This document shows, in pieces, positions 22,491 through 49,388 of a DNA stretch of 64,000 nt (within the stretch, counting starts at the first letter, position 1; every line of letters starts with the position of its first letter). Position numbers and translations under genes: made by a program. The notes beneath the pieces are model-generated. The model did not search any database and was not told where the DNA came from. It worked only from the letters and a program-made list of their open reading frames with translations. The stretch covers positions 263,493 through 327,492 of the forward strand of contig CAVTVI010000006.1 of NCBI GenBank assembly GCA_963738175.1, written 5' to 3'. The stretch is from an uncultured Verrucomicrobiae bacterium. Its GTDB lineage: Bacteria > Verrucomicrobiota > Verrucomicrobiia > Limisphaerales > UBA11358.

Positions 22491-24112
<1,622 letters not shown>

Positions 24113-24164
24113 CGAATGAAATTGACGGGTGCGACGGCGGTTTGTAGATTACGCGCCCGTTTGA

Positions 24165-24239
24165 TTCCAGAGTAGCTCAATGGTAGAGCACGCGGCTGTT
24201 AACCGTGTGGTTGTAGGTTCGAGTCCTACCTCTGGAGCC
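24165..24239 (+). tRNA. tRNA-Asn (anticodon GTT)
   Basis: Acceptor TCCAGAG/CTCTGGA, D-arm AGCTCAATGGTAGAGC, anticodon loop CTGTTAA, T-arm GGTTCGAGTCC, encoded CCA. Confidence 0.9.
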
Positions 24240-25850: not shown

Positions 25851-26372
25851 TTATTTCGCCGCCTGGGAATGGGCTTCGACGAACCACAGCCATTTGTCTA
25901 TGCCGCGCGAAACTTCGGTGAACAAATCCGCCGTGTCGGCGTCGTCCAGCGCGTTCGCCTCGTCAATCGTCGCGCGCGCTTCCTGTCCAAAAGTGGAAAG
26001 CGCCCGCGCCACGGCTTCGACATGCGCCATGCCTTCCGCGATTTGCAGCGGATACTCGGCGAGCCGCGTGCGCGACGCGGCCACGCGCACCGTGCCTTCG
26101 GCGATGCCGCCGAGCTGTACGATACGTTCGGCGATTTTATCCACATAATCTTCCACGGCTTCGTCCACCTTGTCGAACAGTTCGTGCAGGCCGATGAAGC
26201 TCGGGCCTTTCACATTCCAATGCGCCTGCTTCATCTGCGATTGCAGGTCCACGGCGGACGCCAGCCGCTGGTTCATCAGCGCGTTCAGTTCCAGACGATT
26301 TTTCAGCAAAATGTCGTTTTCAGTTTCATACATTTGCGGTGCTTCCTTGAAAGTAGCTTTGGATTTTTTCAT
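25851..26372 (-). CDS. dps: Dps family DNA-protection/ferritin-like protein
   Basis: LQSQMKQAHWNVKGPSFIGLHELFDKVDEAVEDYVDKIAERIVQLGG; ATG at 26372. Confidence 0.9.
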   Translation of the reverse strand: MKKSKATFKEAPQMYETENDILLKNRLELNALMNQRLASAVDLQSQMKQAHWNVKGPSFIGLHELFDKVDEAVEDYVDKIAERIVQLGGIAEGTVRVAASRTRLAEYPLQIAEGMAHVEAVARALSTFGQEARATIDEANALDDADTADLFTEVSRGIDKWLWFVEAHSQAAK

Positions 26373-26404
26373 AAATAAATTTTGATGGTTGTTTGAAATT
26401 TGTT

Positions 26405-26653
26405 TCAGGTCTTGTTGTGAAAGCCGTGGACGCGAGTGCGGTTGCGTTCCGCGAGCAAGTGCGCCTCGGCCTCCAGCCAATGCTGCACCTCGTGTCCCGG
26501 TCGCGAGCCCTGATTCACATAGCTGAAGTAGGCTTTTCTGGCCACTTCATCCGGTGACGGCGCAAAATCAATTTCGTTCTGGCTCAAGCCGGCGATGGCG
26601 GGCGCTGAAGTGCCGGCAGTTTTTTGATTTTGGGGATATTTATTTTGTTTCAT
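26405..26653 (-). CDS. DUF2934 family protein
   Basis: VARKAYFSYVNQGSRPGHEVQHWLEAEAHLL; ATG at 26653. Confidence 0.7.
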   Translation of the reverse strand: MKQNKYPQNQKTAGTSAPAIAGLSQNEIDFAPSPDEVARKAYFSYVNQGSRPGHEVQHWLEAEAHLLAERNRTRVHGFHNKT

Positions 26654-26684
26654 AAATTGAGAATAGCCTCGTCTGCGGCGCATT

Positions 26685-26706
26685 CGCCATGGGGTCTTCA
26701 CCCCAT
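26685..26706 (-). promoter_or_regulatory. stress-block palindromic box, copy 1
   Basis: Gene-sense sequence ATGGGGTGAAGACCCCATGGCG, 31 nt upstream of the DUF2934 ATG (DUF2934-dps unit). Confidence 0.6.
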
Positions 26707-28526: not shown

Positions 28527-28961
28527 TTATTTTCCGTTGTTTTGCCCGTGCTGGTCATCCTTTTGATTTTTCTTCTGGCCTTCATTCGAGCCGGATGGCT
28601 TCCAATTTTTCGGATACTTCTGGACCACCGCCGCATGGTGGTTTGCCGGGGAGTCGTGGAAATCCATCTTTACGGACGGGGAAGCCATCAGCACATTCAC
28701 CGTGACACCGCGTGGCGCCGGTCGTGCCACCCAGTCGTTGCCTTCCCGGTAGGCGTATTGGTGCCGGCTCACGCTGTAATAACATTCATACTGGGGGTAA
28801 TAAACGTAATCATCTTGCGCGGCGAACGCATAAGCATCCACTTGGACCCCGGCGCGCGGCCCGTCCACATAACCCACGCATCCGGTCAGCGTCACCAGAA
28901 GCACGGCGGCGAGCGTGAAAACAACCTTGCTGGTTTTGAAGAAAAGTTTTTTATAAATCAT
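28527..28961 (-). CDS. small secreted/lipoprotein, unknown family (paralog of 45854..46288)
   Basis: Signal/lipobox LVTLTGC. Shares the core DDYVYYPxY..YY.S.RHQYAY..G..WV..P.P.GV.V.VL.ASPSV.MD.HDSP..HHA...QKYP.NW.P.G with the paralog. Confidence 0.65.
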   Translation of the reverse strand: MIYKKLFFKTSKVVFTLAAVLLVTLTGCVGYVDGPRAGVQVDAYAFAAQDDYVYYPQYECYYSVSRHQYAYREGNDWVARPAPRGVTVNVLMASPSVKMDFHDSPANHHAAVVQKYPKNWKPSGSNEGQKKNQKDDQHGQNNGK

Positions 28962-28992
28962 CGGACGAAAATAATCGAACGAGACATCGGTG

Positions 28993-29014
28993 CGCCATGG
29001 GGTGTAACCCTACC
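28993..29014 (-). promoter_or_regulatory. stress-block palindromic box, copy 2
   Basis: GGTAGGGTTACACCCCATGGCG, 31 nt upstream of ATG 28961. Confidence 0.6.
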
Positions 29015-29059: not shown

Positions 29060-30529
29060 TCACTCCATCGCCGCCAGCAGTTCATCCAGCAAAACGGTGG
29101 CGAAGCTCGTGGCCGAATCACTCATCGCGTAGGGGATGATGAGTTCACGTCCATGCAGCAGCGCGCCGCAAGTGTAGACGACGTTTGGAACATAACCTTC
29201 GCGCTCCGCTTCGTTGGGGCAAAGGAATGGTTCGCGCAAACGTTTGATGACGCGCGCCGGATCGTTCAGGTCGAGCAGGAACGCGCCGAGGCAATACCTC
29301 CGCATCGCGCCGACGCCGTGGCTCAACACCAGCCAACCCGCTTCCGTTTCAATCGGCGAGCCGCAGTTGCCCAGCTTGATGAACTCCCACGGTTGCGCGG
29401 GAGATTGCAACACTTTTGGCTCCGCCCAAAAATGAATATTGTCCGAAAACATGATCAAAATGTTCTCGTCGTCCTGCCGCGAAAGCATGAAATACTTCCC
29501 ATTGATCTTGCGCGGGAACAACGCCATGCCTTTGTTCTGCACGGCGGGGCCGTTCAACGTGCGGAATTTGAAATTTACAAAGTCCGGCGTCTCCAGCAAT
29601 TGCGGCAGCGTGATTTTTCCGTCATAAGCGGTGTAGGTCGCGAAGTAAGTGAAGCTGCCGTCGTCGTTTTGGAAACGGACGAAGCGCGCGTCCTCGATGC
29701 CGTTGCTCTGGCTGGGCGCGGACGGAAAAAGCACGCGTTGAGAAATTTTGCTATCGGGCGCGAAGTGGACTTCGTAATTCGATTCCGCCAGCAGCAAAAT
29801 TCCGCGCGCGGCGTGGCTCGCCGTGGCGTCGGACGTGTCTTCCGTCAGACCTGACGCAAATAGAACCGCGTGCAATTCCTTCAGCGTAAAACCTTCGTGC
29901 AGCTTGTCCAGCACGCGTCGGCAAAAATCATTTTGCACGCCCGCCTCTTCAAGTTTGTGCGCGAACAATCCCTTGTCGTAGGCGGCATTCGGCACGCGCT
30001 CCGGCTCCATCACGAACGGCACGGGCGGCGTGAGCGTGATGCGATGTTGCGCGCTGACGACGCCGACGCGAAAGGTGATCGAGGAAATGTGCCCCTCGCC
30101 CGTCGCGCGCAAACTCAAGACGAAACGCAGCGCGCCCTTGGGCAATCCGCTTTGGTCGGGATGCGGCACGATGGACGGATTGAACAGCGCCGCCGATTCC
30201 GGCGAATACTCGTGCGTGAAATATGCGCCGATGAGCATCTGTCGTTCGGGCGACGGTGTCGCGCCGGGTTCGAGGTAAATGTTCACCTGCCCGAAGCGTT
30301 CGCGAAAAATTTCCTCGACGTGTTCGTGCCGGTTCGCAAATTCACCGAGCACCTGCGCCAGCAATTTGGCGACTTCTTCTTCCGGCAAGGCCATGACTCG
30401 CGCAACGATGTGCCGCGAAATGTCATCCGTGGTCGGACGAAACGGGCGCAACAGCACGCGCGAACGATCCGGCGTCAGCGTCGGCCCGATGCGTTTGGCG
30501 TGGAGAGTTGTATTTTTCAAAACAGGCAA
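29060..30529 (-). CDS. GH130-family glycosidase/beta-mannoside phosphorylase-like protein
   Basis: C-terminal five-bladed-propeller-type region DARFVRF..YFATYTAYDG..MALFPRKINGKYFMLSRQD..GSPIETEAGWLVLSHGVG..YCLGAFLLD..VPNVVYTCG. Confidence 0.7.
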   Translation of the reverse strand: MPVLKNTTLHAKRIGPTLTPDRSRVLLRPFRPTTDDISRHIVARVMALPEEEVAKLLAQVLGEFANRHEHVEEIFRERFGQVNIYLEPGATPSPERQMLIGAYFTHEYSPESAALFNPSIVPHPDQSGLPKGALRFVLSLRATGEGHISSITFRVGVVSAQHRITLTPPVPFVMEPERVPNAAYDKGLFAHKLEEAGVQNDFCRRVLDKLHEGFTLKELHAVLFASGLTEDTSDATASHAARGILLLAESNYEVHFAPDSKISQRVLFPSAPSQSNGIEDARFVRFQNDDGSFTYFATYTAYDGKITLPQLLETPDFVNFKFRTLNGPAVQNKGMALFPRKINGKYFMLSRQDDENILIMFSDNIHFWAEPKVLQSPAQPWEFIKLGNCGSPIETEAGWLVLSHGVGAMRRYCLGAFLLDLNDPARVIKRLREPFLCPNEAEREGYVPNVVYTCGALLHGRELIIPYAMSDSATSFATVLLDELLAAME

Positions 30530-30532
30530 CGG

Positions 30533-32815
30533 CTATTCTGCGGGCGTTTCCTTGAAACTGGTAAGGGTATTTTGCAGCGCCTGCATTTCCGCGAGCGACA
30601 GCAGAAAAGCCAGTGTGGATTCCGCGCCCTGGTTCTGGCTCAACCGGTCCATGTGCAATCCGTCGCGGCAGCCACCGGTGGTGGAGTCGTAGAGCGCAAG
30701 GCCGAGGTCGTTCCGGCCAAGAAACCACTCGAACGCGCGGCGCGCTTCGGCGACCCAAAACATATCACCCGTTGCGTGATACGCCTCGATGCACGCGGAA
30801 ATCGTCACCTGCGCCTCGATGGGTTGCTGGTCGAAAATGGCGCGTTCATAGCCGCGCGGAAAAAATCCGTTCGAGCCGACGGGCCGAAACGAGCCGGCGT
30901 CCGAGGTTTGGATTTTTATCAGCCAGCGCAAAGTTTTCAGGCCGAGTTCCAGCATCGCCGAATTGTTCAGGGAGCGTCCGTTGAGAATCATCGCGTGCGG
31001 CAGCTTGGCGTTCGCATACGAAACGACTTCTTCAAACCAATGCCATTCCTCCGTCGCGGCATCGGCGTGGCGCTGCATGAGCTTGGCCGTGAGCGATTCG
31101 CGGATCTGGTTCGCGCGCCGGTCGCCGCCGAACCGCCGCAGGTATTCGTCAATGCCGATGAGCGTGAACGCCCACGCGCGCGGCGAAGAAAATTCGGCGG
31201 CCACCGGCAGCGCCTGCTCGAAGAGCTGCGCCGCGAGCATCTGAAAACTGCCCTGCCCCGCCTGCGACACGCACAAGCCGAGCGCCCACAGCGCGTGACC
31301 CTGGCAATCTTCCGAGCCGACCTCTTCCAGCCAGCGCCGGTCGAAGCTCATAAAGTTACGAAATCGTCCGCTCTTGCGATCAAAAGCGTGATTGAGAAAC
31401 GCGGCGTAGGTGGCGGCCTTCGCGCCGAGTTGCGGCGAATCGTCACCGAGCTTTTTCAACATCAACGTCAGCGCCAGCGCGCGCGCGTTGTCGTCCGTGC
31501 AATAACCTTCCGCCAAATTCCGCACCGTGAAACTCGCGTGCTGAAACATTCCGGTCGAATCACTCATCCGAAACAGATGATCCAGTTTCATTTCCGGCAA
31601 TTGTCCAGGCTGTTCGTCGAGCGTCTTGATGGGCGAGGATTTTCTGCCGACGAAACTGTGATCCTTTCGCGCCTGCTCAAAAGATTTCGCGTAAAGCTGT
31701 GCGACGCGGCTCCAGATCATTTCACGTCCGAGCTTGTAAGCGTTCTTGCGCATCAAATGGCGCAGCGGTTCGTCGCGCAACAACTCGACGACAGCGACGG
31801 CAATCGCTTTTGCATCGCGGAACGGAACAAGTTTGCCGCGCTCGGCGGTCAATAATTCCGCCGCGTGCCAGTAAGGCGTTGAGACCACGGCGTTGCCCGC
31901 GCCGAATGCATACGCCAGCGTGCCGGACGTGATTTGCGATTCGGTCAGATACGGCGTGAGATAAATGTCCGCCGCGCCGATGAAGCGCATGAGTTCTTCC
32001 AGCTCGACAAAGCGATTGAAGAACACGACGTTTTTTTGCACGCCCAAATCTTTCGCCAGCCGTTCGAGGCTCAACCGATAAGCTTCGCCTTCGTCGCGCA
32101 GCAGATTCGGATGCGTCTGGCCCAGCACGATATAAACGACATTGGGAAATTCCTTGATGATTTCCGGCAAAGCGCGCAACGCAAATTCGATTCCCTTGTT
32201 CGGCGAGAGCAATCCGAACGTGAGCAAAACCTGTTTGCCAGCCACGCCGAATTCGTCCTTGAAATAATTTGGATCGGCGAACGGCATGTCGGGAATGCCG
32301 TGCGGGATAAGGTCAATCTTGTTTTCCGGCGCTTGATAAACGTCGCGCAGAAATTCCCGTCCGCGCTCGCTCATCACGACGAGCCGCGTCGAGCGCCGGA
32401 TCAATTCACGCATCACGCGGCTTTGCTCCGCGTTTGGTTCGCGCAAAATCGTGTGCAGCGTGGTGACGATGGGCATATTCAGTTCGCGCAGCAATGCCAG
32501 CACATGACTGCCCGCCGGCCCGCCGTAAATGCCGAACTCATGCTGCACGCAAACCACGTCCACGTCCGTGATGTTCAAAAAATCCGCCGCGCGCAGATAC
32601 GACGGCAAATCCTGCTCCGCGATTTCAAAACGGACTTCCGGCGGATAATCATAGCCTTCAGCAAGATCATTGACCGGCACGACGAGGCATTGCAGTTGCG
32701 GAAATTCCTTCGCCACGGCGCAGCGCAGATCGGTCGTGAACGTGGCGATGCCGCATTTGCGCGGCAGATAATCGCCGAGAAACGCGACCTTGCGGATGTC
32801 CGATGGTTGCTGCAT
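30533..32815 (-). CDS. glycosyltransferase family 4 (GT-B) fused to a C-terminal (alpha/alpha)6-barrel glycosidase-like domain
   Basis: N-terminal GT1/GT4 region (VAFLGDYLPRKCGIATFT, EGEAYRLS, TPYLTESQITSGTLAYAFGAGNAVVSTP) plus a ~370-aa helical-repeat C-terminus; 760 aa. Confidence 0.75.
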   Translation of the reverse strand: MQQPSDIRKVAFLGDYLPRKCGIATFTTDLRCAVAKEFPQLQCLVVPVNDLAEGYDYPPEVRFEIAEQDLPSYLRAADFLNITDVDVVCVQHEFGIYGGPAGSHVLALLRELNMPIVTTLHTILREPNAEQSRVMRELIRRSTRLVVMSERGREFLRDVYQAPENKIDLIPHGIPDMPFADPNYFKDEFGVAGKQVLLTFGLLSPNKGIEFALRALPEIIKEFPNVVYIVLGQTHPNLLRDEGEAYRLSLERLAKDLGVQKNVVFFNRFVELEELMRFIGAADIYLTPYLTESQITSGTLAYAFGAGNAVVSTPYWHAAELLTAERGKLVPFRDAKAIAVAVVELLRDEPLRHLMRKNAYKLGREMIWSRVAQLYAKSFEQARKDHSFVGRKSSPIKTLDEQPGQLPEMKLDHLFRMSDSTGMFQHASFTVRNLAEGYCTDDNARALALTLMLKKLGDDSPQLGAKAATYAAFLNHAFDRKSGRFRNFMSFDRRWLEEVGSEDCQGHALWALGLCVSQAGQGSFQMLAAQLFEQALPVAAEFSSPRAWAFTLIGIDEYLRRFGGDRRANQIRESLTAKLMQRHADAATEEWHWFEEVVSYANAKLPHAMILNGRSLNNSAMLELGLKTLRWLIKIQTSDAGSFRPVGSNGFFPRGYERAIFDQQPIEAQVTISACIEAYHATGDMFWVAEARRAFEWFLGRNDLGLALYDSTTGGCRDGLHMDRLSQNQGAESTLAFLLSLAEMQALQNTLTSFKETPAE

Positions 32816-32866: not shown

Positions 32867-33178
32867 TTATTTTTCTTTTTGCCCGCATCGTTGCGGGCGA
32901 AATGCCGACCAGAGCGAGCCGGCCAGTTGCGCGCCTTTTAGAACGGTTTGCAGCCACGAAGGTTTTTCGGCGGCGGGCGCGGATTCTTTTTTGCGCCGGA
33001 AGGACGCAAGGCCGGTGACCAGCGAGACGGCGGATGACGCCAGCGAACCGATGGTCCTGGCCTGGCTTGTCAGCGAATGAACCTCGTCCGAAATTGTCCG
33101 CAATTCCTGGATCAGTTGCACGCGGTTGAGTTCGCTTTCCGCAATCAACAATTTTTTCCGCGAGGCGAGCGGGTTCAT
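32867..33178 (-). CDS. YqjK-like small protein
   Basis: MNPLASRKKLLIAESELNRVQL.. Its start overlaps the upstream stop (ATGA). Position after the YqjD/YqjE-like genes matches the E. coli yqjDEK order. Confidence 0.5.
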   Translation of the reverse strand: MNPLASRKKLLIAESELNRVQLIQELRTISDEVHSLTSQARTIGSLASSAVSLVTGLASFRRKKESAPAAEKPSWLQTVLKGAQLAGSLWSAFRPQRCGQKEK

Positions 33179-33564
33179 GCGAGGATTTTTTCCAGACATT
33201 CACGGTCCTTTCGGAGTTGGTCGAGCGTGGCGAAAAGTGTCTGCCAGTTTCGCAGCAAACCGGTGAGCCGCCGGTAAAGGCAAACCCCGGCTGCTCCGTA
33301 AAGAACAGTCATTGTTAAAAGGATGGCCACGGGTGACCAAGCCCACAGCAAGACCGCGATGGCCGCCGTGAGCGTCAGACCGGCGAGCAGGCCGAACGCC
33401 GCCACACCGAGCGCCAGCAAAAAGGCGTGCAAAAGACGCTCGCGTTCCTCCTGCACTTCCACCGCCAGCAGTTCAAGCCGGTTTTCCCCGATGGTCGCCA
33501 GCCGCCGCGCAAAATGTTTCGAGGTCGCGGCCAGTTGCCCGAAGCTGACGGTGGATTCTTCCAT
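33175..33564 (-). CDS. YqjE-like / DUF1469 ('phage holin family') membrane protein
   Basis: MEESTVSFGQLAATSKHFARRLATIGENRLELLAVEVQEERERLL followed by two TM helices. Confidence 0.65.
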   Translation of the reverse strand: MEESTVSFGQLAATSKHFARRLATIGENRLELLAVEVQEERERLLHAFLLALGVAAFGLLAGLTLTAAIAVLLWAWSPVAILLTMTVLYGAAGVCLYRRLTGLLRNWQTLFATLDQLRKDRECLEKILA

Positions 33565-33571
33565 AACGAAA

Positions 33572-33877
33572 TCAGCTCCGGTTGCAGGCGCACCGGCGGG
33601 CGACGAGATAACCGATGACCGCGCCGACGCCGATGGCGATGGCAATGGATTGATACGGATTTTCGCGGACGGTCTGGTCGGCGACCTTCGCGCCGGCGAC
33701 CGCCTTGTCGCGGACATTGGCCGCGATGTGTTTGGCGCTTTCGAGCGCGGCGGCGAGGCGCTTGCGGGCCTCCCCGACTTTATCTCCGGCCACGTCGGCG
33801 GTGGCGGCCATCAATGCGCGCGCGTCTTCGGCGAGCGTGCCAAGGTCATTGCCGGTTGGTTGTGTTTCTTTGTTCAT
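33572..33877 (-). CDS. YqjD/ElaB (DUF883) family membrane-anchored stress protein
   Basis: LAEDARALMAATADVAGDKVGEARKRLAAALESAK..VRENPYQSIAIAIGVGAVIGYLVAR. Confidence 0.8.
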   Translation of the reverse strand: MNKETQPTGNDLGTLAEDARALMAATADVAGDKVGEARKRLAAALESAKHIAANVRDKAVAGAKVADQTVRENPYQSIAIAIGVGAVIGYLVARRCACNRS

Positions 33878-34260
33878 GCTTTTTTTGTTTTTGGTTTGTT
33901 TGTGTTTTTCAACGGTAAATTTTCCGCGTCGGCGAGATGGGCCGCTTCTGGCGAACTTGCCACGGTCAAAATGGAATTTCTTCCGCCGAACGGATTGGCG
34001 ACGGTTTTTCTCGCCAGCGGGTCGGGAATCCATTTGCCGTCCACGACGAGGCAGTATTCGTAGGTGCCGGGCGCGAGGGCGGTTTCCTTCCACCAGTTGC
34101 CGACGCCGGAGGAATGCAGCGTCTTGGTTTCGGGTTGCCACTGGTTGAAAGTTCCCGCGACGCAAACGCTCTTGGCCGTCGGATGCGTGAATTCAAAGCG
34201 GACCGGCACCAGTTGCGGGTCACTGCTCCCGGCGTTGTCGTGGTTATGATTGTGTTTCAT
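33874..34260 (-). CDS. stand-alone CBM48 / AMPK-beta-type glycogen-binding domain protein
   Basis: VPVRFEFTHPTAKSVCVAGTFNQWQPETKTLH..WWKETALAPGTYEYCLVVDGKWIPDP. Confidence 0.7.
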   Translation of the reverse strand: MKHNHNHDNAGSSDPQLVPVRFEFTHPTAKSVCVAGTFNQWQPETKTLHSSGVGNWWKETALAPGTYEYCLVVDGKWIPDPLARKTVANPFGGRNSILTVASSPEAAHLADAENLPLKNTNKPKTKKA

Positions 34261-34346
34261 GGCGGATAAATTATCGGGAGGGCAAATTTCAATTCAAGGA
34301 GTTGTTCCCTTTCATAACGCCATCATGCACAGGGAAGCTTTGCCAG

Positions 34347-34368
34347 TGCCATGGGGTGTTACCCTACC
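34347..34368 (-). promoter_or_regulatory. stress-block palindromic box, copy 3
   Basis: GGTAGGGTAACACCCCATGGCA, 86 nt upstream of ATG 34260 (CBM48-yqjDEK-like-GT4-GH130 unit). Confidence 0.6.
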
Positions 34369-35519: not shown

Positions 35520-36065
35520 TCAATTTTCCTGCGGAATCAATCCCACCCGCAGGGCCAGCCGCACCAGTCCCGGAACGTCGTGAATTTTCAGGCAGTTCAT
35601 CAACTTTATACGATGGTATTCGACGGTCTTGGGACTGACCTTCAAAATCTCCGCAATCTTCTTCGTGTTCTGGCCTTCGGCAATCAGCAGGAGAATCTCG
35701 CGCTGCCGGATCGTCAACGGTTCGAGCGGGCTTTGCTCGCCGGCGATTCCATCCATGGTGATGTTTTTAAGGAATTGCGTGGAGATCTTCCCTTGCGAAT
35801 CAGCTTCCTTGCGGCTCGCACTTTTCAGAGCCGTCTCGGCCTGCTCGGTGCGCGTCTCGGCCTGTTCGGTTCGGATTTCGGCTTGTTCTGTCCGCGTCTT
35901 CGCCAGTTCCGTCCGGGTTTCAGCCTGTTCCGTGCGCGTCTCCGCTGATTCCGCGCGGGTCTTGGCCTGCTCGGTGCGCGTTTCAGCCTTCTCCGTCCGG
36001 GCTTCGGCCTGTTCAATCCTCGTTTTGCTGCCGGTCACGCCCGCAGGTTGATTCTTTTTTTTCAT
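35520..36065 (-). CDS. LuxR-family HTH regulator without a receiver domain, with an N-terminal heptad-repeat region
   Basis: C-terminal TIRQREILLLIAEGQNTKKIAEILKVSPKTVEYHRIKLMNCL. N-terminal region has about nine (A/T)ETRTEQ heptads. ATG at 36065. Confidence 0.8.
   Translation of the reverse strand: MKKKNQPAGVTGSKTRIEQAEARTEKAETRTEQAKTRAESAETRTEQAETRTELAKTRTEQAEIRTEQAETRTEQAETALKSASRKEADSQGKISTQFLKNITMDGIAGEQSPLEPLTIRQREILLLIAEGQNTKKIAEILKVSPKTVEYHRIKLMNCLKIHDVPGLVRLALRVGLIPQEN
35832..36020. repeat. 9 x 21-nt in-frame tandem repeat inside the LuxR-solo gene
   Basis: Units on the + strand: cgtctcggcctgctcggtgcg / cgtctcggcctgttcggttcg / ... / ggcttcggcctgttcaatcct. Confidence 0.9.
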
Positions 36066-36102
36066 TTCGACTCCATCACAATAAACAAAGAAATTTTGCG
36101 AG

Positions 36103-36125
36103 CGCCATGGGGTGTTTTCCCCATC
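36103..36125 (-). promoter_or_regulatory. stress-block palindromic box, copy 4
   Basis: GATGGGGAAAACACCCCATGGCG, 37 nt upstream of the LuxR-solo ATG 36065. Confidence 0.6.
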
Positions 36126-36178: not shown

Positions 36179-36200
36179 GGTAGGGTTATACCCCATGGTA
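36179..36200 (+). promoter_or_regulatory. stress-block palindromic box, copy 5
   Basis: GGTAGGGTTATACCCCATGGTA on the + strand, 150 nt upstream of ATG 36351. Divergent partner of copy 4. Confidence 0.55.
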
Positions 36201-36350
36201 AATGACCGATTTGAACATATAATTTCAGTTGTAGTGCTGAAAGTCATGCAGGAAGATGAAATTGATTTGAGCACCGCGATCGGCATCAACGTACCGCCAC
36301 TCTAAAAAAACCTGTGGACAAAAATGGTCGGAGCCGATTAAAGAACCATC

Positions 36351-36956
36351 ATGAAATTCATCCTTCCATTACTCACGGCGGTGACATTGGCCGCCTGCCT
36401 TCTGACCGGCTGTCAATCGCCCAAGGCCATGTCTCCGCGCGAAAGCATTGCGACGCAATCCACGCGAAACAATGGCTACAGCCTGCTCCATCAACTTCTC
36501 GACGAGCAAAAAAATGTCGGCCTGCTGCGATTCATCAGACCCGAGAACTCCGATGTCAAAGAACTGGTGAAGCGGATTGCCACCGCTTCCGGAACCGGGG
36601 CAAAATTATTGGAGGCATTTGCCAAGGACGATCCTTCAATCAATCTGGACGACATCCGGCTGCCGCCGGGCGAAGTGGCCACGCGCGATGCGATTGCAGC
36701 CACCAAAAAAAAGGAATTGTTGAGCCAGAGCGGCGACACCTTTGAACTGACCCTGCTTTTGACCCAGACCGAGGCGTTGAGCTATGCCTGGCATCTGGCG
36801 GAAGTCACCGCCGAAAACGAGCCGCAACCCGAACGCGCCCGTGCGCTGGCCGGCATCAGTGACGACATGAAAAACCTCTATCACGAAGTGTTCGTCTTGT
36901 TGCTGTCGAAAACAGAATCATCGACCACGAACTCGATCACGGCTCAACCGCAATAG
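36351..36956 (+). CDS. hypothetical lipoprotein
   Basis: MKFILPLLTAVTLAACLLTGC lipobox; helical 201-aa body; no family recognised. Confidence 0.6.
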   Translation: MKFILPLLTAVTLAACLLTGCQSPKAMSPRESIATQSTRNNGYSLLHQLLDEQKNVGLLRFIRPENSDVKELVKRIATASGTGAKLLEAFAKDDPSINLDDIRLPPGEVATRDAIAATKKKELLSQSGDTFELTLLLTQTEALSYAWHLAEVTAENEPQPERARALAGISDDMKNLYHEVFVLLLSKTESSTTNSITAQPQ

Positions 36957-36984: not shown

Positions 36985-37003
36985 GATGGGTAGAATACCC
37001 CAT
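36985..37003 (+). promoter_or_regulatory. degenerate/orphan copy of the palindromic box
   Basis: GATGGGTAGAATACCCCAT on the + strand, with no + strand ORF downstream. Followed by a 9-bp-stem hairpin AACACCGCA..TGCGGTGTT. Confidence 0.3.
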
Positions 37004-37107
37004 AACACCGCAGGAACTTTTCGATTACGATACAATGCGGTGTTGATATTGGTTCTATTTATCAGTTTGTTTTTACTGGGCTTGTTCACAATCAGACCCT
37101 AGCTCAC

Positions 37108-38289
37108 CTATTTTTTCATCGTGCGGAATTGTCGCAGGGCGACGAAGGGATCAATCCGCGCCAACAAAAAATGCGCCCAGTGATTTTTCCAGCGCTGCCA
37201 GAAAGTCTCGGTTTTCCGCCATTGAGGAAGTTCGATTTTCCGGGAAAGTTTCAGCGCGCGCTCAAAAATTTCCCGCGCCTCGGCGGCGGCCGTTTTGTCG
37301 TCAAATCGCAACATGAGTTCGTAATTCAAATTGAGGCTGCGGATGTCGAGATTGGAAGAGCCGACATAAGCGATGCCGTCGCAGAGAACCAGTTTGGCGT
37401 GCAAAATCTGCGGCTGATATTCGTAAATCTCCACGCCCGCTTTCAACAGGCGATGATACAAACTTCTGGCCGCCAGTTGCGAGACCGGCACGTCGGATTT
37501 GCCGGCCAGCAGCAGTTGCACGCGTCCGCCGCGCCGCGCCACGCGCTTCAAATCCCGGCGCAGCCGCCGGGTCGGCAGAAAATACGCGCTCACAATCCGC
37601 ACGTCATGGGCTTTGGCCAGATCGTGATAGAGCGCAGTTTGAAACGGGCTGGCACCGCGTCCGGGACGGATTGGCAAAAATTCCCCCGCCGTTCTCTTTT
37701 GAGATTTGCGTTTGTGTTTGAAGAGGCGCAAACGCAGCAGCGGTTTTTTGTGAAAATCCGACAGCGCAAATAATTCTTCAAATGAATCCGCCAGTTCTCC
37801 GGCCAGCGTTGCATTTTGAATCCGGACGCCGAGGTCGCACCAGCCGCGCGTCACGCCGTCGCCGTCGTATTCATCGGCCACATTAAATCCGCCGATGAAA
37901 ATGACGGACTCGTCGCAGACCAGAAGTTTGCGATGGTCGCGCACGCCGAAACGCCAGAGGTGAAGCGGATTGAAACGGCGCACCTGCGCGCCGGCGGCGA
38001 TGAGCGGGCTGAAAAAATTATCCGGCAAAAACCATGAACCGGCGGCATCCACCAGCACGCGCACGCGCACGCCGCGCCGGGTCGCCGCCAGCAGCGCTTC
38101 CAGAAACCGCCGCGCCAACTGGCCGTCGGAAAACGTGTAAGTTTCCAGTTGGATGGATTTCTGCGCCGCGTGGATCGCCGCCAGCATGGCCGGAAAAATT
38201 TCCCGGCCCATGGAAAGCCATTGCAGCGCGGGGGTGTTTGAAGCGGATATGTTTTTGATTTGATTCACCAAGCCGGAAAAGGAGCCCAC
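37108..38289 (-). CDS. phospholipase D / cardiolipin synthase family protein (two HKD motifs)
   Basis: HRKLLVCDESVIFIGGFN and LHAKLVLCDGIAYVGSSNLDIRS. Confidence 0.85.
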   Translation of the reverse strand: MGSFSGLVNQIKNISASNTPALQWLSMGREIFPAMLAAIHAAQKSIQLETYTFSDGQLARRFLEALLAATRRGVRVRVLVDAAGSWFLPDNFFSPLIAAGAQVRRFNPLHLWRFGVRDHRKLLVCDESVIFIGGFNVADEYDGDGVTRGWCDLGVRIQNATLAGELADSFEELFALSDFHKKPLLRLRLFKHKRKSQKRTAGEFLPIRPGRGASPFQTALYHDLAKAHDVRIVSAYFLPTRRLRRDLKRVARRGGRVQLLLAGKSDVPVSQLAARSLYHRLLKAGVEIYEYQPQILHAKLVLCDGIAYVGSSNLDIRSLNLNYELMLRFDDKTAAAEAREIFERALKLSRKIELPQWRKTETFWQRWKNHWAHFLLARIDPFVALRQFRTMKK

Positions 38290-38326: not shown

Positions 38327-39499
38327 TTATTCCGACCGATCTTTTTGCTTTTCAAAATTGTATTGGAACAGCAGCCCGATGCTTTGCGCGCCTTCCTTGC
38401 CGTCGCGGAGCGCGTTGAACCCGTAACCGTAGCGCAGGATTATCTCAAAATTTTTATTTTGGGGCGCAAACGACAGGCCGCCGCCGGCGCCGGTCTGCCA
38501 ACTGCTCCGCTGGTCAAAGCCGGGCAGATAATCCATGTGGGCCGTCGCCGCCTCCAGCCGGAAATCCCAGCGATGCGCCGAATCCAAGGGCACGTCATAC
38601 CCGGCGTAAAAATGTTGAAAGCTCGTCGCGGTGAGTTCTTCATAATAGTAGCCGGGCAGCGTCAGCGGAAATTCCGACACCAGCGGCAGCACGCCGCCCA
38701 GCCGCCACGCGCTGAACCGGTCCGCATCGGTCGAGCCGCCCGCCGTGAACGCGAATGAAATTTTTTGCCCGCTGTTTGTCCACGCATAGTTCAAACCGGC
38801 ATAGAGCCAGTAAAGGTTCACATCGGGACTGATGCTGCGGTCGTCGCTGTAACCATATGGCTGGCTGTCCAAACGCCATTGCCGTTCAAACCAGACGGAA
38901 AGTTCCATGCCCAAGTCGGGATATAGAACCGGCTCCTTGCCCGCCACCCGGATGCCGCCCCGCGTGTAACCGCTGACTTGATTGCCGGGCAAAGTGAAAT
39001 TGTTTGCCGTGTCAGAAGTATCCGTAAAAGTTGAATCGCGCATCCCGCCGCGCGCGACCACGCTCACCGGAATCAGCATGCCCGGATTCAACAATTGATA
39101 CACGCTCAAGGCAATCCCGCCGCCATCGCCATTAAAACTTTCGCTTTTGTAGTATTGGCCCTGCCGGACTTCATAATAATTCGCGCCAAACAGTCCGCCA
39201 TTGAAACCGAGGCCGACATCGGTATAGGGCGATAGCAAATGTTTGAACCCGATTTCGCCGTCCACATAAGCCGGGGCAATGGCCAGACGCAAAGCCGTGT
39301 TGGTGTCAAAAAAGTCCGGGTTGTTGTAATAATAATAGGCGTAGACCGCCTGTGGTCCCTGGCCGGCGAGCGGCTGGTCGTAGCCCAACTCCAGCAGATT
39401 GCGATGCATGGGGTCAATTTGTGCGTGGCAATCGAAACCCGCCAGCAAACCGGCGGCGGCCAATAAAAAAATGCCCGGAGTTCGATTAAAAATAGGCAT
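38327..39499 (-). CDS. outer-membrane beta-barrel protein (Omp85/surface-antigen-like barrel, no POTRA seen)
   Basis: Signal peptide MPIFNRTPGIFLLAAAGLLAG; alternating aromatic/Gly-rich beta-strand pattern. Alternative ATG at 39559. Confidence 0.6.
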   Translation of the reverse strand: MPIFNRTPGIFLLAAAGLLAGFDCHAQIDPMHRNLLELGYDQPLAGQGPQAVYAYYYYNNPDFFDTNTALRLAIAPAYVDGEIGFKHLLSPYTDVGLGFNGGLFGANYYEVRQGQYYKSESFNGDGGGIALSVYQLLNPGMLIPVSVVARGGMRDSTFTDTSDTANNFTLPGNQVSGYTRGGIRVAGKEPVLYPDLGMELSVWFERQWRLDSQPYGYSDDRSISPDVNLYWLYAGLNYAWTNSGQKISFAFTAGGSTDADRFSAWRLGGVLPLVSEFPLTLPGYYYEELTATSFQHFYAGYDVPLDSAHRWDFRLEAATAHMDYLPGFDQRSSWQTGAGGGLSFAPQNKNFEIILRYGYGFNALRDGKEGAQSIGLLFQYNFEKQKDRSE

Positions 39500-39591
39500 G
39501 GTGATTTTATGTAAGGGGCTGTCATTACAGATGAGTGACATCGCTCCCGCATCCTTCATGGATTTTACGATAGACTGGAAAGCCTTGTGAC

Positions 39592-39613
39592 CGCCATGGG
39601 GTGTTCACCCCAT
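39592..39613 (-). promoter_or_regulatory. stress-block palindromic box, copy 6 (perfect 8-bp arms)
   Basis: ATGGGGTGAACACCCCATGGCG, 92 nt upstream of ATG 39499 (32 nt from the alternative ATG 39559). Confidence 0.6.
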
Positions 39614-39619
39614 TTGAGA

Positions 39620-40550
39620 CTATGGCGCGGAAAGCTGTTCGAGTTTTGCGCCCTCACGCTGCAAGAGGGTTGCTTCAACCCGGGGCACATACATTTGCGT
39701 TTCCGCCGGCAGATGTTCGGCGATGGCGTCGTAACTGTCCGTTTTATGGCGGTCCAAAAGTTTTTGCACCGTGCCTTCACCCGCGTTGTAAGCGGCCAAA
39801 GCGAGCCGCCAGTCCTTAAAACGGTCGTAAAGATATTTCAGATACTGGGCGGACGCGGTCGCGCTCGGTTCCGGCTGAAACCGTTGATCGCGCGGCCACA
39901 GCGAAAGACCAAACCGTCTGGCCGTGTCCGGCATCAATTGAAATAATCCTGCCGCTCCCGCCGGACTCATTGCGCGGCGGTCGAAGGACGATTCCACCTC
40001 CGCCACCCAGACCAGTTCCGGCGGAATCTTTTGCGCGGTAAAAATCGGCTTCAACTCCGGCACATATTCTTTTGCCAAAGCCGGCCACGGGAGCGACGGA
40101 AACTTTTTTCACCCAAAGCTCGCGTTCCTTTTCCGGCGGGGGATTGGGAACCGGTTGCGGCGGCTGGTTGGTTTCGGCTTTTGGCGGTGGAATCGTGAGC
40201 CGGATTTCGTCCGCGACATCCAGATAATCCATCTGCGACTTGAGCCACGCGGCATAGGGCTGCGTTTCTTCGCGACTTTCCAGCAGCGGCAGGATGGTTT
40301 GGGCGGTTTGCCGCAGCGTGGCAATGTCCACGACGTAGTCGCCTTGAAAGCGTTGCTGCACTTCGCGGAAAAATTGCCGCACCGCCTGCCCGTCCGCCTC
40401 GGGAAGCGCATTGAGAACATTCGTGTCGAGATTTTCCTGCGCCCACTGTTGCGCGCCTTGGATGAGATCCGGCAACGTGACCGTGTCGTCATCTGCCCGG
40501 GCGACCACTGAACCCGCCAAAAGCAACATAAGTGTGATAAAGCTTTTCAT
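39620..40550 (-). CDS. secreted lytic transglycosylase (SLT domain); frame broken once as given
   Basis: The N-terminal part, with signal peptide MKSFITLMLLLAGSVVARA, is in ORF 39816..40670. The SLT part (VAEVESSFDRRAMSPAGAAGLFQLMP..ALAAYNAGEG) is in ORF 39620..40078. The junction is near 40097. Confidence 0.8.
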
Positions 40551-40628
40551 GAAGCTGGCATGGTGACGGCGCAAATCAAAAGAAGGGAAAAATTCATCGG
40601 CTGAAAGCTGCCACATTCTGAAAGAGGT

Positions 40629-40650
40629 CGCAACGGGGTGTTCCACCCAT
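40629..40650 (-). promoter_or_regulatory. stress-block palindromic box, copy 7 (degenerate proximal flank)
   Basis: ATGGGTGGAACACCCCGTTGCG, 78 nt upstream of ATG 40550. Confidence 0.5.
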
Positions 40651-40712: not shown

Positions 40713-40734
40713 AGTAGGGTTTTACCCCATGGCA
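40713..40734 (+). promoter_or_regulatory. stress-block palindromic box, copy 8
   Basis: AGTAGGGTTTTACCCCATGGCA on the + strand, 106 nt upstream of the mini-ORF at 40841. Divergent partner of copy 7. Confidence 0.55.
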
Positions 40735-40840
40735 AAAAGCGAGGGCACGTTCTAAAGTAAAAAAAGAAAAAAGTTGCCGGAACGCTTTTACAATTCACGG
40801 CGTCGGCATAAACAACAAGTGTAAAAACGAAAGACAAACT

Positions 40841-40973: not shown

Positions 40974-41747
40974 ATGAGCATCCAAATCGGAATTTTGCGA
41001 ATTATACCGGTGACACTGGCGACCTTCTTGATGGTCGGCGAACTTCAGGCACAGGTCAACTGGCTCACCGATAATCGCTCTGTGACCGCATCTGGTTATG
41101 TTCAGGTTCCGCCAATGCCGGTCTTGAATTATCTTGCGACCAAGACTCCTTCCGCGTCATTTGCCACGTTCAATGGAAATGTTTCTGGAACAGTGGATGA
41201 GAACTATCCGGGTCCGCCAACAGCGGGCGGCGACAGCCAGGCGGCGCAAAACTCCTCTTTGAGCGGGAATCAATTTAATTTCAGTTCATCGTTGTCGGCG
41301 GCGACGGGTGGAGTAGGCCAGAACTGCACGGTTTACAGCGAAGCGGATTCGTTCAGCGAATTGACCTTCAGCGTCAACAGCCCGCAAACATGGAGTCTGG
41401 CCGTGGATTTGGTTGATCCCTACGGCAACGTATCCGCAAGCTGGAACCTGATTTCAGCACAAGTAGGCTTGCTTCTCGGCGCTCCCATCCCAAATCCTGA
41501 TCCAAGCGGGCTCCCGATTTATTATCAGGGAACACTTGCACCCGGGGACACTTATACCCTTACTTTTGCCCTCGACGCTTCTCAAAATGCGCCTGACCCG
41601 GCGGGCGATGATTCGCAAGTAAGCATTGATGCGACCTTCTCGGTAGTGCCCGAACCCTCTTCGTATGCGCTGATGGTCATGGGATTAACCGGCCTCTTTG
41701 CCCTGAAAAGGAAGTGCAAAAATGATTTAACTAACCCGCTCCGCTGA
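40974..41747 (+). CDS. PEP-CTERM sorting-domain protein
   Basis: N-terminal signal peptide and C-terminal VPEPSSYALMVMGLTGLFALKRKCK. Confidence 0.8.
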   Translation: MSIQIGILRIIPVTLATFLMVGELQAQVNWLTDNRSVTASGYVQVPPMPVLNYLATKTPSASFATFNGNVSGTVDENYPGPPTAGGDSQAAQNSSLSGNQFNFSSSLSAATGGVGQNCTVYSEADSFSELTFSVNSPQTWSLAVDLVDPYGNVSASWNLISAQVGLLLGAPIPNPDPSGLPIYYQGTLAPGDTYTLTFALDASQNAPDPAGDDSQVSIDATFSVVPEPSSYALMVMGLTGLFALKRKCKNDLTNPLR

Positions 41748-42198: not shown

Positions 42199-42666
42199 TC
42201 ACATCCGCAAACCATTGGATGACGGCTGGCTTTGCCGGTTTGGCGGCGGCGCAGATTGTTCGAGGCAACCGTCGCTCACGCGCAGAACATTGCCCACCGT
42301 GATCAATAACTCCTCGATGCTATAAGGTTTGAGCAGCGTGGCCTCGATTTGCAGCCACGGATGCCGGCTCAATTCATCTTCGGGAAAGGTTCCGGTGGCC
42401 ATGATGACCGGCAACGCCATGCGGGCGGCATGAACTTTCTTGACCAACTCAACACCTGTCATCCTCGGCATATCGTTGTCGGTGATCAGCAGATGATAAT
42501 TTTTAAGTTGCAACACTTCCCAAGCGTCAGCCCCGTCGTTGGCGGTATCAACCTCGTAGCCGGATTCAACCAGCACCGTGCTGTTGAGTTGGAGAATTAA
42601 AGGCTCGTCATCCGCCAGAAGAATGCGCTGGGGGGTCGTTTTGCACTTAAGTGGCGCGCTGGGCAA
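42199..42666 (-). CDS. stand-alone response-regulator receiver protein
   Basis: ILLADDEPLILQ..HLLITDNDMPRMTG..PVIMATG; 155 aa, no output domain. Confidence 0.85.
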   Translation of the reverse strand: MPSAPLKCKTTPQRILLADDEPLILQLNSTVLVESGYEVDTANDGADAWEVLQLKNYHLLITDNDMPRMTGVELVKKVHAARMALPVIMATGTFPEDELSRHPWLQIEATLLKPYSIEELLITVGNVLRVSDGCLEQSAPPPNRQSQPSSNGLRM

Positions 42667-42733
42667 CGTATTTCTCCGTCATGTAAAACTACTCTTTCTT
42701 TCATTTCGACATCATAGGCTGAAACCTTTGCGG

Positions 42734-42756
42734 CTGCCATGGGGTGTTTTACCCAT
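42734..42756 (-). promoter_or_regulatory. stress-block palindromic box, copy 9
   Basis: ATGGGTAAAACACCCCATGGCAG, 67 nt upstream of ATG 42666. Confidence 0.6.
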
Positions 42757-45853: not shown

Positions 45854-46288
45854 TTATTTTTTGTCGTGACCCGGCCCGGCATTCTCGTCGTGATGTTCAC
45901 CGGCAGGCCGCCAATTTCTCGGATACTTCTGCATCATCTCGGCATGATGCCGTTCCGGGGAGTCATGCCAATCCATGTGCACTGACGGTGAAGCCAGCAG
46001 CACTTCAACCGAGACTCCCATCGGCACCGGCGCAAAAACCCAGACACCGCCATCCAAATAAGCGTATTGGTGCCGGTGGCTGTTGTAATAGATGGCATAG
46101 TTGGGATAATATACATAGTCGTCCTGCACGATTACGACCGGGGGTGCCACGATCACGGGAGGCGGCACGCCGATCACGATGGTTACTCCGCCAGCGTAAC
46201 CCGCGCTTCCGGTCAGCGTCGCCAGCAGCACGGCACCCAGCACGAATGCAACCTTGTTAGTTTTTAAGAAATGTTTTTTGTTATTCAT
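45854..46288 (-). CDS. small secreted/lipoprotein, paralog of 28527..28961
   Basis: MNNKKHFLKTNKVAFVLGAVLLATLTGSAG.. Same conserved core as the 28.5-kb gene. Confidence 0.65.
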   Translation of the reverse strand: MNNKKHFLKTNKVAFVLGAVLLATLTGSAGYAGGVTIVIGVPPPVIVAPPVVIVQDDYVYYPNYAIYYNSHRHQYAYLDGGVWVFAPVPMGVSVEVLLASPSVHMDWHDSPERHHAEMMQKYPRNWRPAGEHHDENAGPGHDKK

Positions 46289-46317
46289 GGGATGAGAGTA
46301 TTCCAGAAGGTGCGCCG

Positions 46318-46339
46318 GCGCTATGGGGTGTAACCCGAA
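46318..46339 (-). promoter_or_regulatory. stress-block palindromic box, copy 10
   Basis: TTCGGGTTACACCCCATAGCGC, 29 nt upstream of ATG 46288. Confidence 0.6.
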
Positions 46340-46457
46340 GGAAGGCCCGGCACAATCCGCCGCAAAAATTTGACTTTTATTGATAATCCCCGCGAAGCAG
46401 GAGAAATGTCCGTCGTCCACTTAAAAAATCCGCGCGCCGAGATGGCTTGCTGGAAGA

Positions 46458-46655: not shown

Positions 46656-46676
46656 TAACCTTTTTCATCACCGCCT

Positions 46677-46698
46677 CGCCATGGGGTGTTCACCCTAT
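46677..46698 (-). promoter_or_regulatory. stress-block palindromic box, copy 11
   Basis: ATAGGGTGAACACCCCATGGCG, 21 nt upstream of GTG 46655. Confidence 0.55.
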
Positions 46699-49300: not shown

Positions 49301-49388
49301 GTTGTCAAGCCGGGTTCTGCGGAGTTGGGGCTTTATCTTTCAATTTTCAATCACAACTCATGACATTGTCCGTCAATTTCATTGGTTC

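Follow-up and report, generated by a model that had tools for sequence, protein, structure and literature searches.

A 22-bp box as the likely upstream half of activator-dependent promoters in a candidate general-stress regulon of Verrucomicrobiota

We analysed a 64,000-nucleotide stretch of DNA from an uncultured Verrucomicrobiae bacterium (contig CAVTVI010000006.1, positions 263,493 to 327,492, hereafter called the window) with respect to a box of 22 bp that recurs upstream of genes. Our best explanation, which we favour with moderate confidence, is that the box forms the upstream half of a sigma-70-type promoter dependent on an activator, and that it is most likely read by a response regulator encoded in the same cluster. 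In such a promoter the upstream half would be an inverted repeat fused to a weak -35-like element (ATGGCR), and a normal -10 element (TAnnnT) would follow 18-19 bp further on.

The 11-mer ACCCCATGGCG has seven exact occurrences in the window, compared to 0.05 expected, and 12 occurrences with at most one mismatch, compared to 1.7 expected; none of 100 shuffles reached 12. When the upstream arm is counted in, there are 14 strong boxes, 12 of them on the minus strand and two on the plus strand (36179-36200 and 40713-40734), and two weak boxes at 49389-49410 (minus strand) and 36986-37007 (plus strand). All boxes are located between positions 26685 and 59662 and the remaining 31 kb of the window contain none. 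A preliminary description of this DNA had counted 13 copies on the minus and two on the plus strand, which agrees with the 14 strong boxes plus the weak box at 49389, while the weak box at 36986 is an additional candidate. The copies had also been called strictly oriented, and indeed every one of them has its ACCCCATGGCR half directed towards the closest gene start downstream. In the interval from which this study started (28959-29014, minus strand), the box spans 29014-28993 and is followed by the hexamer TATTTT (28973-28968) and the ATG of a lipoprotein gene (28961).

Two classes of the box can be distinguished, and the class tends to follow the gene family. Class A boxes (ATGGGGTG-AA-CACCCCAT) are true dyads and have the shape of a dyad operator of about 18-22 bp; the copy at 59641-59662 is even a perfect 22-bp palindrome (CCATGGGGTGAACACCCCATGG). 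The class B boxes (GGTAGGGT(T/A)AC-ACCCCAT), which form the majority class, are partial dyads only. Compared to class A, their left arm is one base closer, and they carry a G-to-A change and a conserved GGTA flank. The flank of class A boxes is random on the promoter-distal side and reads RGCR on the proximal side. At its 3' end the box reads ATGGCR, of which the first two bases are shared with the proximal arm of the dyad. ATGGCR is identical to TTGACA at 3-4 of 6 positions, is positioned 18-19 bp from the hexamer described below and probably acts as a weak -35 hexamer. The proximal arm had been described as nearly invariant, and ACCCC is in fact identical in all 16 copies; the reported variation of the distal arm was found as well, without a compensating change in the proximal arm. 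An A/T tract upstream of the box is weakly enriched (0.31 compared to 0.20), so no claim of an UP-like element is made.

Aligning the strong copies on the box end showed that a hexamer of the form NANNNT (A at position 2 and T at position 6, A2/T6) starts 18-20 nt past the box end in 14 out of 14 copies (background 0.139, p=1e-12). At the same register TANNNT is found in 9 out of 14 copies (background 0.013, p=1.5e-14), and no other offset from 0 to 70 gathers two or more TANNNT. A -10 element of the sigma-70 type is defined by just these two bases, A2 and T6. The distance between box and hexamer is unchanged in promoters with a long leader, namely those of the BON (72 nt), CBM (86 nt), PAS kinase (103 nt) and PEP-CTERM (239 nt) genes, and the hexamer is therefore tied to the box and not to the start codon. 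A tRNA gene in the same window has the promoter TTGACG-17-TAGATT, so that the hexamer would be of the housekeeping -10 type. Moreover, ATGGCA-18-TATGAT at 42740-42711 was picked up unaided by a generic scan for the sigma-70 consensus. From the sequence we infer that the hexamer is a -10 element, and the box is very probably a -35/upstream promoter element tied to this sigma-70-type -10.

If the hexamer is placed at -12 to -7, the dyad reaches from about -53 to -35 and has its centre at -43.5 or -44.5, and the whole box covers about -31 to -53. Thus a suboptimal -35 and spacer are combined with a recognisable -10, and an operator is found in fixed register near -41.5 to -44.5, its centre being computed from the hexamer. 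This geometry changes several points of the preliminary description. There, the transcription start was placed inside or immediately next to the box, whereas the -10-type hexamer 18-20 nt downstream in 14 out of 14 copies puts the predicted start about 31-33 nt past it. The proposal of a core-promoter element is half right, since the 3' end of the box is probably a weak -35. The view that the box is not a distal activator site holds, as it is promoter-proximal and at a fixed distance to the -10. It had further been argued that a symmetric operator needs no orientation; however, class A is a true dyad, and the polarity of the box comes from the attached GGCR/-35-like bases and the fixed register to the -10, as in a class II promoter.

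An ATG or GTG is positioned 6-8 nt past the hexamer in 10 of the 14 strong copies (background 0.088, p=2e-8), and six of these ten start codons open a long open reading frame (ORF), including the DUF2934 gene and both lipoprotein paralogues. The paralogy of the two lipoprotein genes (28527-28961 and 45854-46288) had been proposed before and is borne out by 52% identity; from residue 4 on, their N-termini can be aligned. For start codons positioned 6-8 nt past the -10, we predict that transcription begins on or next to them and that the mRNAs are leaderless. The short gaps of 21-37 nt between box and start codon would be taken up by the spacer, the -10 and the discriminator, which would leave no room for a 5' leader. 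Cappable-seq data of the mouse gut microbiome gave about 10% leaderless starts and -35/TATAAT-type logos for Akkermansia muciniphila (PMC4782308), so leaderless mRNAs are plausible for the phylum.

Three of the gaps reported in the preliminary description are exact (31 nt from 26685 to ATG 26653, 31 nt from 28993 to ATG 28961 and 37 nt from 36103 to ATG 36065). The box ahead of ATG 46288 ends at 46319 and not at 46318, so the gap is 30 nt instead of 29 nt. The arithmetic of the 21-nt gap to GTG 46655 is correct, but this GTG is located inside the -10-like hexamer TAGTGT (46652-46657), and the in-frame GTG 46643 is more likely to be the start of the small gene.

At the predicted start of three box promoters the ATG opens only a short ORF (34313-34315, 42702-42704 and about 40596-40598). 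The ORF at ATG 34315 encodes MKGNNSLN followed by a stop codon. ATG 42704 is in another reading frame than the receiver gene, for which TTG 42666 is the earliest start available. ATGAAA is recurrent at the starts of these ORFs. Possible explanations are leaderless upstream ORFs, frameshifted gene calls and an initiator preference.

For the conservation of the box in public genomes, one genome per species was searched with the pattern GGGTN{1,2}ACACCCCATGGCG, resulting in at least 117 loci of 8 kb each with 118 boxes. Among the matches listed, 78 of the 118 boxes are on Verrucomicrobiota-labelled contigs (Limisphaerales, Verrucomicrobiia, Akkermansiaceae, Opitutaceae, Chthoniobacter, Prosthecobacter and Haloferula, among others) and contigs of Lentisphaerae, Kiritimatiellae or Victivallales carry four further boxes; among these matches, subdivision 3 / Limisphaerales includes the closest genomes. 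In the same set of matches, an A2/T6 hexamer is found at 17-20 nt in 68 of the 78 Verrucomicrobiota boxes and in none of 12 matches from unrelated phyla (Collinsella, Streptomyces, Lacticaseibacillus, Pseudomonadales and others) that were regarded as chance hits and served as an internal control. A start codon lies 5-9 nt past the hexamer in 39 of the 61 listed boxes with TAnnnT. The box is kept ahead of orthologues of the DUF2934, lipoprotein, CBM, receiver-only regulator, BON, DUF5670, entericidin, PAS kinase, PRC-barrel and ADH genes. Over about 150 promoters the register deviates by no more than 1 bp.

Furthermore, we carried out an anchor search in which both arms were left free (ATGGCR + 17-20 nt + TAnnnT). 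A box is present in 88 out of 106 hits, and all but one of these 88 boxes contain ACCCC; in the lone ACTCC variant the left arm is unchanged. A covariation analysis of the two arms had been suggested earlier, and in the relatives the right arm is invariant or nearly so while the changes in the left arm are uncompensated. In the searched literature the motif strings gave unrelated primer coincidences only, and nothing relevant was found on Verrucomicrobia stress regulons or promoter motifs.

Ten of the public loci with box promoters carry the labels Bifidobacteriaceae (binchicken co-assemblies) or Candidatus Sulfotelmatobacter (SMAG_U12678). Several of these contigs contain orthologues of window genes with 56-81% identity, and the labels or bins of these metagenome-assembled genomes (MAGs) are probably wrong. 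Another case is the Acidobacteriota-labelled MAG locus L065 (4395-4445). Here a class B box with TATCGT at 18 nt is found ahead of a group-2-like sigma gene with regions 1.2, 2, 3 and 4, next to a divergent extracytoplasmic function (ECF) sigma gene and with a BON gene nearby. This locus may represent a regulatory cascade or may hint at an occurrence of the box outside the Planctomycetes-Verrucomicrobia-Chlamydiae (PVC) group.

The genes under the box in the window are those for DUF2934 and Dps, a PRC-barrel protein, two lipoproteins, CBM with DUF883 (ElaB/YqjD-like) and YqjE-like proteins, a triple-BON (OsmY-like) protein with DUF5670, an entericidin, a PEP-CTERM protein and several signalling proteins. 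Elsewhere the targets include PRC-barrel, CsbD, Mn-catalase, DUF892, DJ-1/PfpI, AhpC, RRM and DUF883 proteins. These families make up the RpoS, sigma-B and EcfG regulons. By its gene content the set looks like a co-regulated set of classic protective genes, which suggests that the box promoters switch on a stationary-phase or general-stress gene set.

The best candidate for the box binder is a response regulator of the NarL/LiaR family with a REC domain and a GerE helix-turn-helix (HTH) domain (Table 1). It is encoded together with a soluble histidine kinase, its presumed partner, and with a paralogue of this kinase that has the DHp domain and no ATPase domain. Orthologues of the response regulator with 66-83% identity were found in at least 15 of the box-selected loci, in at least 13 genomes, and the recognition helix KTVEKHR is invariant across them. 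One orthologue, with 67% identity, is encoded together with a box in Haloferula sp. BvORR071, a candidate for a culturable carrier (contig NZ_BATP01000056.1, 184-192 kb). Among the matches listed, the RsbU_N-HisKA_3-HATPase kinase is found in about 20 and the DHp-only paralogue in about 15 box-selected loci, and the NarL-type two-component system is the commonest gene family adjoining boxes; the underlying single-linkage clustering of near-box ORFs is noisy from antisense ORFs and was used qualitatively only. Since the DHp-only paralogue is conserved just before the full kinase in at least nine other genomes, it is no pseudogene, and a role as phosphotransfer or anti-kinase partner is conceivable. 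In 9 out of 9 loci with a visible start (the window and eight others), the variant GTCGGGTTTYACCCCATAKAC with GAnnnT at 18 nt precedes the two-component operon. The nearest solved relatives of the response regulator are VraR, NarL, DesR and DevR. An exact-sequence look-up of the response regulator returned no record, and the curated NCBIfam models all score under their cut-off.

A second candidate binder or modulator is a box-driven protein of 181 amino acids, in which about nine TRTEQAE-type heptad repeats are followed by a GerE HTH domain. Between this HTH domain and that of the response regulator the identity is 52%, and the recognition helices read KTVEYHR and KTVEKHR, respectively. In the public locus L104 the same HTH type (KTVEYHR) is joined to a receiver domain instead of a coiled coil.

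In the mechanism that we propose, a GerE/LuxR-type HTH dimer would bind the dyad and recruit the housekeeping RNA polymerase holoenzyme, as DosR does at hspX. The binder would be the phosphorylated NarL-family response regulator, the phosphate would be supplied by the RsbU_N-HisKA_3 kinase, and the regulator's own operon would also be a target. A dyad near -44, a weak -35, a spacer of 18-19 bp and a good -10 are the geometry of a class II activator, which is the reason for proposing a phosphorylated regulator dimer. That a dimeric transcription factor, and not a sigma factor, reads the dyad appears quite likely. The non-consensus -35 and the suboptimal spacer are a signature of activator dependence and suggest activation rather than repression. 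For the identity of the factor, we give the response regulator in Table 1 about an even chance.

Several observations weigh against this explanation. Co-localisation and autoregulation are equally expected if the two-component system is no more than a target of another factor. In class B the closer left arm and the GGTA flank are not explained by simple dyad symmetry. In addition, constraint is much stronger on the proximal 13 nt (ACACCCCATGGCR) than on the distal arm, an unusual pattern for a plain homodimer site. The box is never found at class I distances, and the gene content resembles regulons that are run by alternative sigma factors in other phyla. Moreover, the conservation of GGGT and ACACCCCATGGCG in the public loci is built into the search pattern; independent evidence comes from the flanks and from about 90 further boxes, found with looser patterns, that were not used for selection.

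A rival explanation is that an RpoS-like group 2 factor or another alternative sigma factor reads ACCCCATGGCR in place of TTGACA, keeps TAnnnT and needs no activator. The strictly fixed register to the -10 without class I distances, the near-invariant proximal 13 nt beside a varying distal arm, the gene content mirroring the RpoS, sigma-B and EcfG regulons and the class B box ahead of a sigma gene with regions 1.2-4 in the Acidobacteriota-labelled L065 would all fit. We nevertheless consider such a factor improbable, as the class A boxes are dyads of 18-22 bp that extend to about -53, past the reach of sigma region 4, and a monomeric domain needs no dyad. There is also no sigma gene in the window, and only 3-5 sigma-factor ORFs occur across the at least 117 box-selected loci, compared to 15-20 for the two-component system. 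ECF (GGAAC / CGT) and sigma-54 (GG-N10-GC) patterns do not fit the alignments when these are read by eye, and neither GGAAC-N16-17-CGT nor an upstream GTTT-N14-16-GGGTAT was found in the box alignments, while the -10 has A2 and T6 as for a group 1/2 sigma factor. A sigma-54 reading of TGGCR was rejected because the -12 GC is present in a minority of copies and two copies have AGCG, without GG. Likewise rejected were an ECF reading of GAAC in class A, from which it is about 28 nt to any CGT or -10 and thus too far, and a sigma-B/F-like reading of GGGTAT as the -10, as there is no conserved GTTT upstream. The geometry of an activated sigma-70-type promoter could also be right with another binder, namely the coiled-coil GerE protein, a split of the two box classes between factors, a heterodimer or an unlinked factor. 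The coiled-coil gene has a canonical class A promoter, its HTH resembles that of the response regulator down to a recognition helix with a one-residue difference, and there are two box classes that tend to follow the gene family. On the other hand, full-length coiled-coil homologues are rare in the box-selected loci (among the matches listed, L104 has the one such homologue, fused to a receiver), and response regulator and kinase are the commonest box neighbours, which makes another binder possible but unlikely.

If instead the dyad were a repressor operator over the -35 region, comparable to that of DdrO at the radiation/desiccation response motif (RDRM) of Deinococcus or of LexA at SOS boxes, stress would act by derepression. 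A palindrome overlapping the -35 is in the classic position of a repressor, and phylum-wide palindromic stress motifs bound by repressors exist. Repressor operators are, however, usually found at variable positions on strong promoters, whereas here the register is the same to within 1 bp in the approximately 150 promoters, ATGGCR, a non-consensus -35, is present throughout and the length of the spacer, 18-19 bp, is suboptimal. In addition, the DNA-binding proteins encoded nearby are response-regulator and LuxR types, which are mostly activators at such a position, and we judge repression to be decidedly improbable. That the box is transcribed and functions as an RNA hairpin at the mRNA 5' end has a probability close to nil. 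In class A copies a stem of 7 bp with -10 to -11 kcal/mol is possible, yet over the copies the predicted stems range from -3.9 to -11.4 kcal/mol in differing registers, the right arm never varies and changes in the left arm are uncompensated. The -10-type hexamer downstream places the box outside the transcript, and the box has no Rfam match at the gathering threshold or at E<=1. A structured cis-regulatory RNA was thus rejected, with the box upstream of the predicted -10, differing registers of the minimum free energy folds and no compensation. Protein/DNA recognition rather than an RNA stem had already been preferred in the preliminary description, and the position of the box upstream of the predicted start, the missing compensation and the missing Rfam match agree with that preference.

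The box promoters of the window, the candidate binders and the reference promoter are listed in Table 1.

Table 1. Box promoters with their putative targets, candidate regulatory proteins and the housekeeping reference promoter in the window. Distances of start codons are counted from the hexamer and those of hexamers from the box.
Feature	Position	Strand	-10 or -10-like hexamer; start codon	Driven genes or remarks
Class A box ATGGGGTGAAGACCCCATGGCG	26685-26706	-	TATTCT 26660-26665; ATG 26653, 6 nt on	DUF2934 gene (26405-26653), then Dps (25851-26480)
Class B box GGTAGGGTTACACCCCATGGCG	28993-29014	-	-10-like TATTTT 28968-28973; ATG 28961, 6 nt on	Lipoprotein gene (28527-28961)
Class B box	34347-34368	-	-10-like CATGAT 34322-34327	Operon: AMPK1_CBM (33874-34260), DUF883/ElaB-like (~33572-33886), YqjE-like holin-X (33175-33717), ORF of 119 amino acids
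Class A box ATGGGGAAAACACCCCATGGCG	36103-36124	-	TATTGT 36078-36083; ATG 36065, 12 nt on	Coiled-coil + GerE/LuxR HTH gene (35520-36065)
Class B box	36179-36200	+	TATAAT 36218-36223 (17 nt) or TAATTT 36220-36225	Lipoprotein-like gene (36351-36956); divergent from the box at 36103
Weak box ATGGGTAGAATACCCCATAACA	36986-37007	+	TACGAT 37026-37031, 18 nt on	
Class A box ATGGGGTGAACACCCCATGGCG	39592-39613	-	TATCGT 39567-39572; ATG 39559, 7 nt on	Gene for a protein of 410 amino acids (38327-39559), probably also PLD gene (37108-38289)
Degenerate class A box ATGGGTGGAACACCCCGTTGCG	40629-40650	-	weak -10-like CAGCTT 40605-40610	Secreted protein gene (39816-40616)
Class B box AGTAGGGTTTTACCCCATGGCA	40713-40734	+	TAAAGT 40753-40758	PEP-CTERM protein gene (40974-41747), long 5' leader; divergent from the box at 40629
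Class A-like box ATGGGTAAAACACCCCATGGCA	42735-42756	-	TATGAT 42711-42716	Receiver-only response regulator (42199-42666)
Class B box CTTCGGGTTACACCCCATAGCG	46319-46340	-	TACTCT 46295-46300; ATG 46288, 6 nt on	Paralogous lipoprotein gene (45854-46288)
Class A box ATAGGGTGAACACCCCATGGCG	46677-46698	-	TAGTGT 46652-46657; in-frame GTG 46643, 8 nt on	Small gene (46458-46655)
Weak box variant GGTCGGGTTTCACCCCATATCC	49389-49410	-	GACAAT 49365-49370, 18 nt on	Upstream of the two-component operon
Class B box GGTAGGGTTACACCCCATAGCG	50843-50864	-	poor CACCAT 50819-50824	Triple-BON (OsmY-like) gene (49985-50770), then DUF5670 (49769-49921) and a membrane protein of 71 amino acids
Class B box AGTAGGGTTACACCCCATGGCG	51138-51159	-	GATACT (18 nt) or TACTCT (20 nt; 51112-51117); GTG 51107	Entericidin-family lipoprotein gene (50904-51107)
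Class A box CCATGGGGTGAACACCCCATGG	59641-59662	-	-10-like CATCAT 59616-59621	PAS histidine kinase (58317-59537) and downstream signalling genes
NarL/LiaR-family response regulator (REC + GerE HTH, recognition helix KTVEKHR)	46767-47450	-		Best candidate box binder
Soluble histidine kinase (RsbU_N + HisKA_3 + HATPase_c)	47466-48605	-		Presumed partner of the response regulator
Kinase paralogue (RsbU_N + HisKA_3 (DHp), no ATPase domain)	48602-49300	-		Conserved ahead of the full kinase
Coiled-coil GerE protein, 181 amino acids (~nine TRTEQAE-type heptad repeats, then GerE HTH)	35520-36065	-		Second candidate binder/modulator, box-driven
Housekeeping reference promoter	24112-24146	+	TTGACG, 17 nt, TAGATT	Promoter of the tRNA gene (24166-24237)

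The weak box at 36986-37007 is positioned between the ends of two convergent genes; transcription from it would run antisense into the PLD gene. Upstream of the box of the two-component operon there is a degenerate dyad (CCGGTGTTCACCGGG) at about 49425-49445. Four public loci have a full class B box at the equivalent position, which drives a divergent gene, and the degenerate dyad looks like a decayed divergent box. On the opposite strand within the cluster, a protein of 684 amino acids with 12 RCC1 repeats (43754-45808, plus strand) and a preceding ORF of 270 amino acids have no box. A GH130 (mannoside phosphorylase-like) gene and a gene for a GT4 glycosyltransferase of 760 amino acids (29060-32815, minus strand) have no box of their own in the window, and an orthologue of the glycosyltransferase gene is directly preceded by a box in another genome. 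These two genes may make a compatible solute or glycan under stress.

What is known of the organisation of the general stress or stationary-phase response comes mainly from the model phyla. Tentatively, and at somewhat less than even chance, we suggest that Verrucomicrobiota, probably together with Lentisphaerae/Kiritimatiellae, run their general stress response via one highly conserved NarL-type two-component regulator that reads the 22-bp box, in its fixed geometry, on housekeeping-type promoters, many of them giving leaderless mRNAs, and not via an alternative sigma factor. Two paralogous GerE HTH proteins may be the readers of the two classes of the box. If this is true, it would be a third wiring of the bacterial general stress regulon beside RpoS/sigma-B and PhyR-NepR-EcfG. 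The box is a simple sequence handle which marks what looks like a whole regulon across a phylum with high abundance in soil, freshwater and gut. By means of this handle the regulon could be read directly from any genome or MAG. A specific pair of kinase and regulator can be named as candidate, and single-nucleotide transcription starts and leaderless translation are predicted for dozens of genes. Moreover, the box promoter is compact, portable and probably stress-inducible, which might be of use for genetic tools in Verrucomicrobia.

An activator-dependent promoter combined with a two-component regulon is of a kind that is already known. The phylum-wide conservation of the box, its leaderless geometry and its apparent role as a general-stress switch without an alternative sigma factor appear to be undescribed. 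With the regulons of RpoS in E. coli, sigma-B in Bacillus and EcfG in Alphaproteobacteria, the genes under the box share Dps, OsmY-type BON, entericidin, ElaB/YqjD (DUF883), YqjE-like, CsbD, YciE/F (DUF892), Mn-catalase and PRC-barrel proteins. Unlike those regulons, there is no box-linked alternative sigma factor, the -10 is of the housekeeping type and the specificity apparently lies in the operator and the two-component system.

The closest solved or curated relatives of the two-component system are VraSR and LiaSR (5hev VraR, E=4e-45; LiaS-type HisKA_3 kinase), which share the autoregulation of the operon that is proposed here, while the system is no equivalog of any curated NCBIfam model. 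In VraSR and LiaSR the kinase is membrane-embedded, whereas it is soluble here and carries RsbU_N, and operator and regulon differ. In the class II promoters of LuxR and TraR, a palindrome of 18-20 bp lies over the -35 and a GerE/LuxR HTH dimer contacts the RNA polymerase. The lux and tra boxes are thus comparable to the box described here, as class II palindromes overlapping the -35; they differ in that LuxR and TraR are gated by a ligand and not by phosphorylation, their boxes work at class I distances too and have no invariant GGCR.

In sequence the response regulator is nearer to VraR/LiaR than to DevR (E=2e-25), and its binding to the box is what we infer. DosR/DevR of Mycobacterium tuberculosis is a closely comparable system. 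DevR needs tandem boxes, while single boxes are seen here, the sequence of the half-site differs, and the DosS/DosT kinases have GAF/haem input domains in place of RsbU_N. Sites of DevR often consist of one conserved and one degenerate half (PMC3177182). In the cryo-electron microscopy structure of the activation complex at hspX, the DosR box has its centre at -43.5, and the promoter combines a suboptimal -35 with a consensus -10 (PMC13486717). Both here and there the operator is a G-rich dyad (GGGAC..GTCCC there, GGGGT..ACCCC here) at about -43.5, the -35 is suboptimal and the -10 good, and a NarL-family regulator, a candidate in our case, is combined with a stress or dormancy regulon in which its own operon is targeted.

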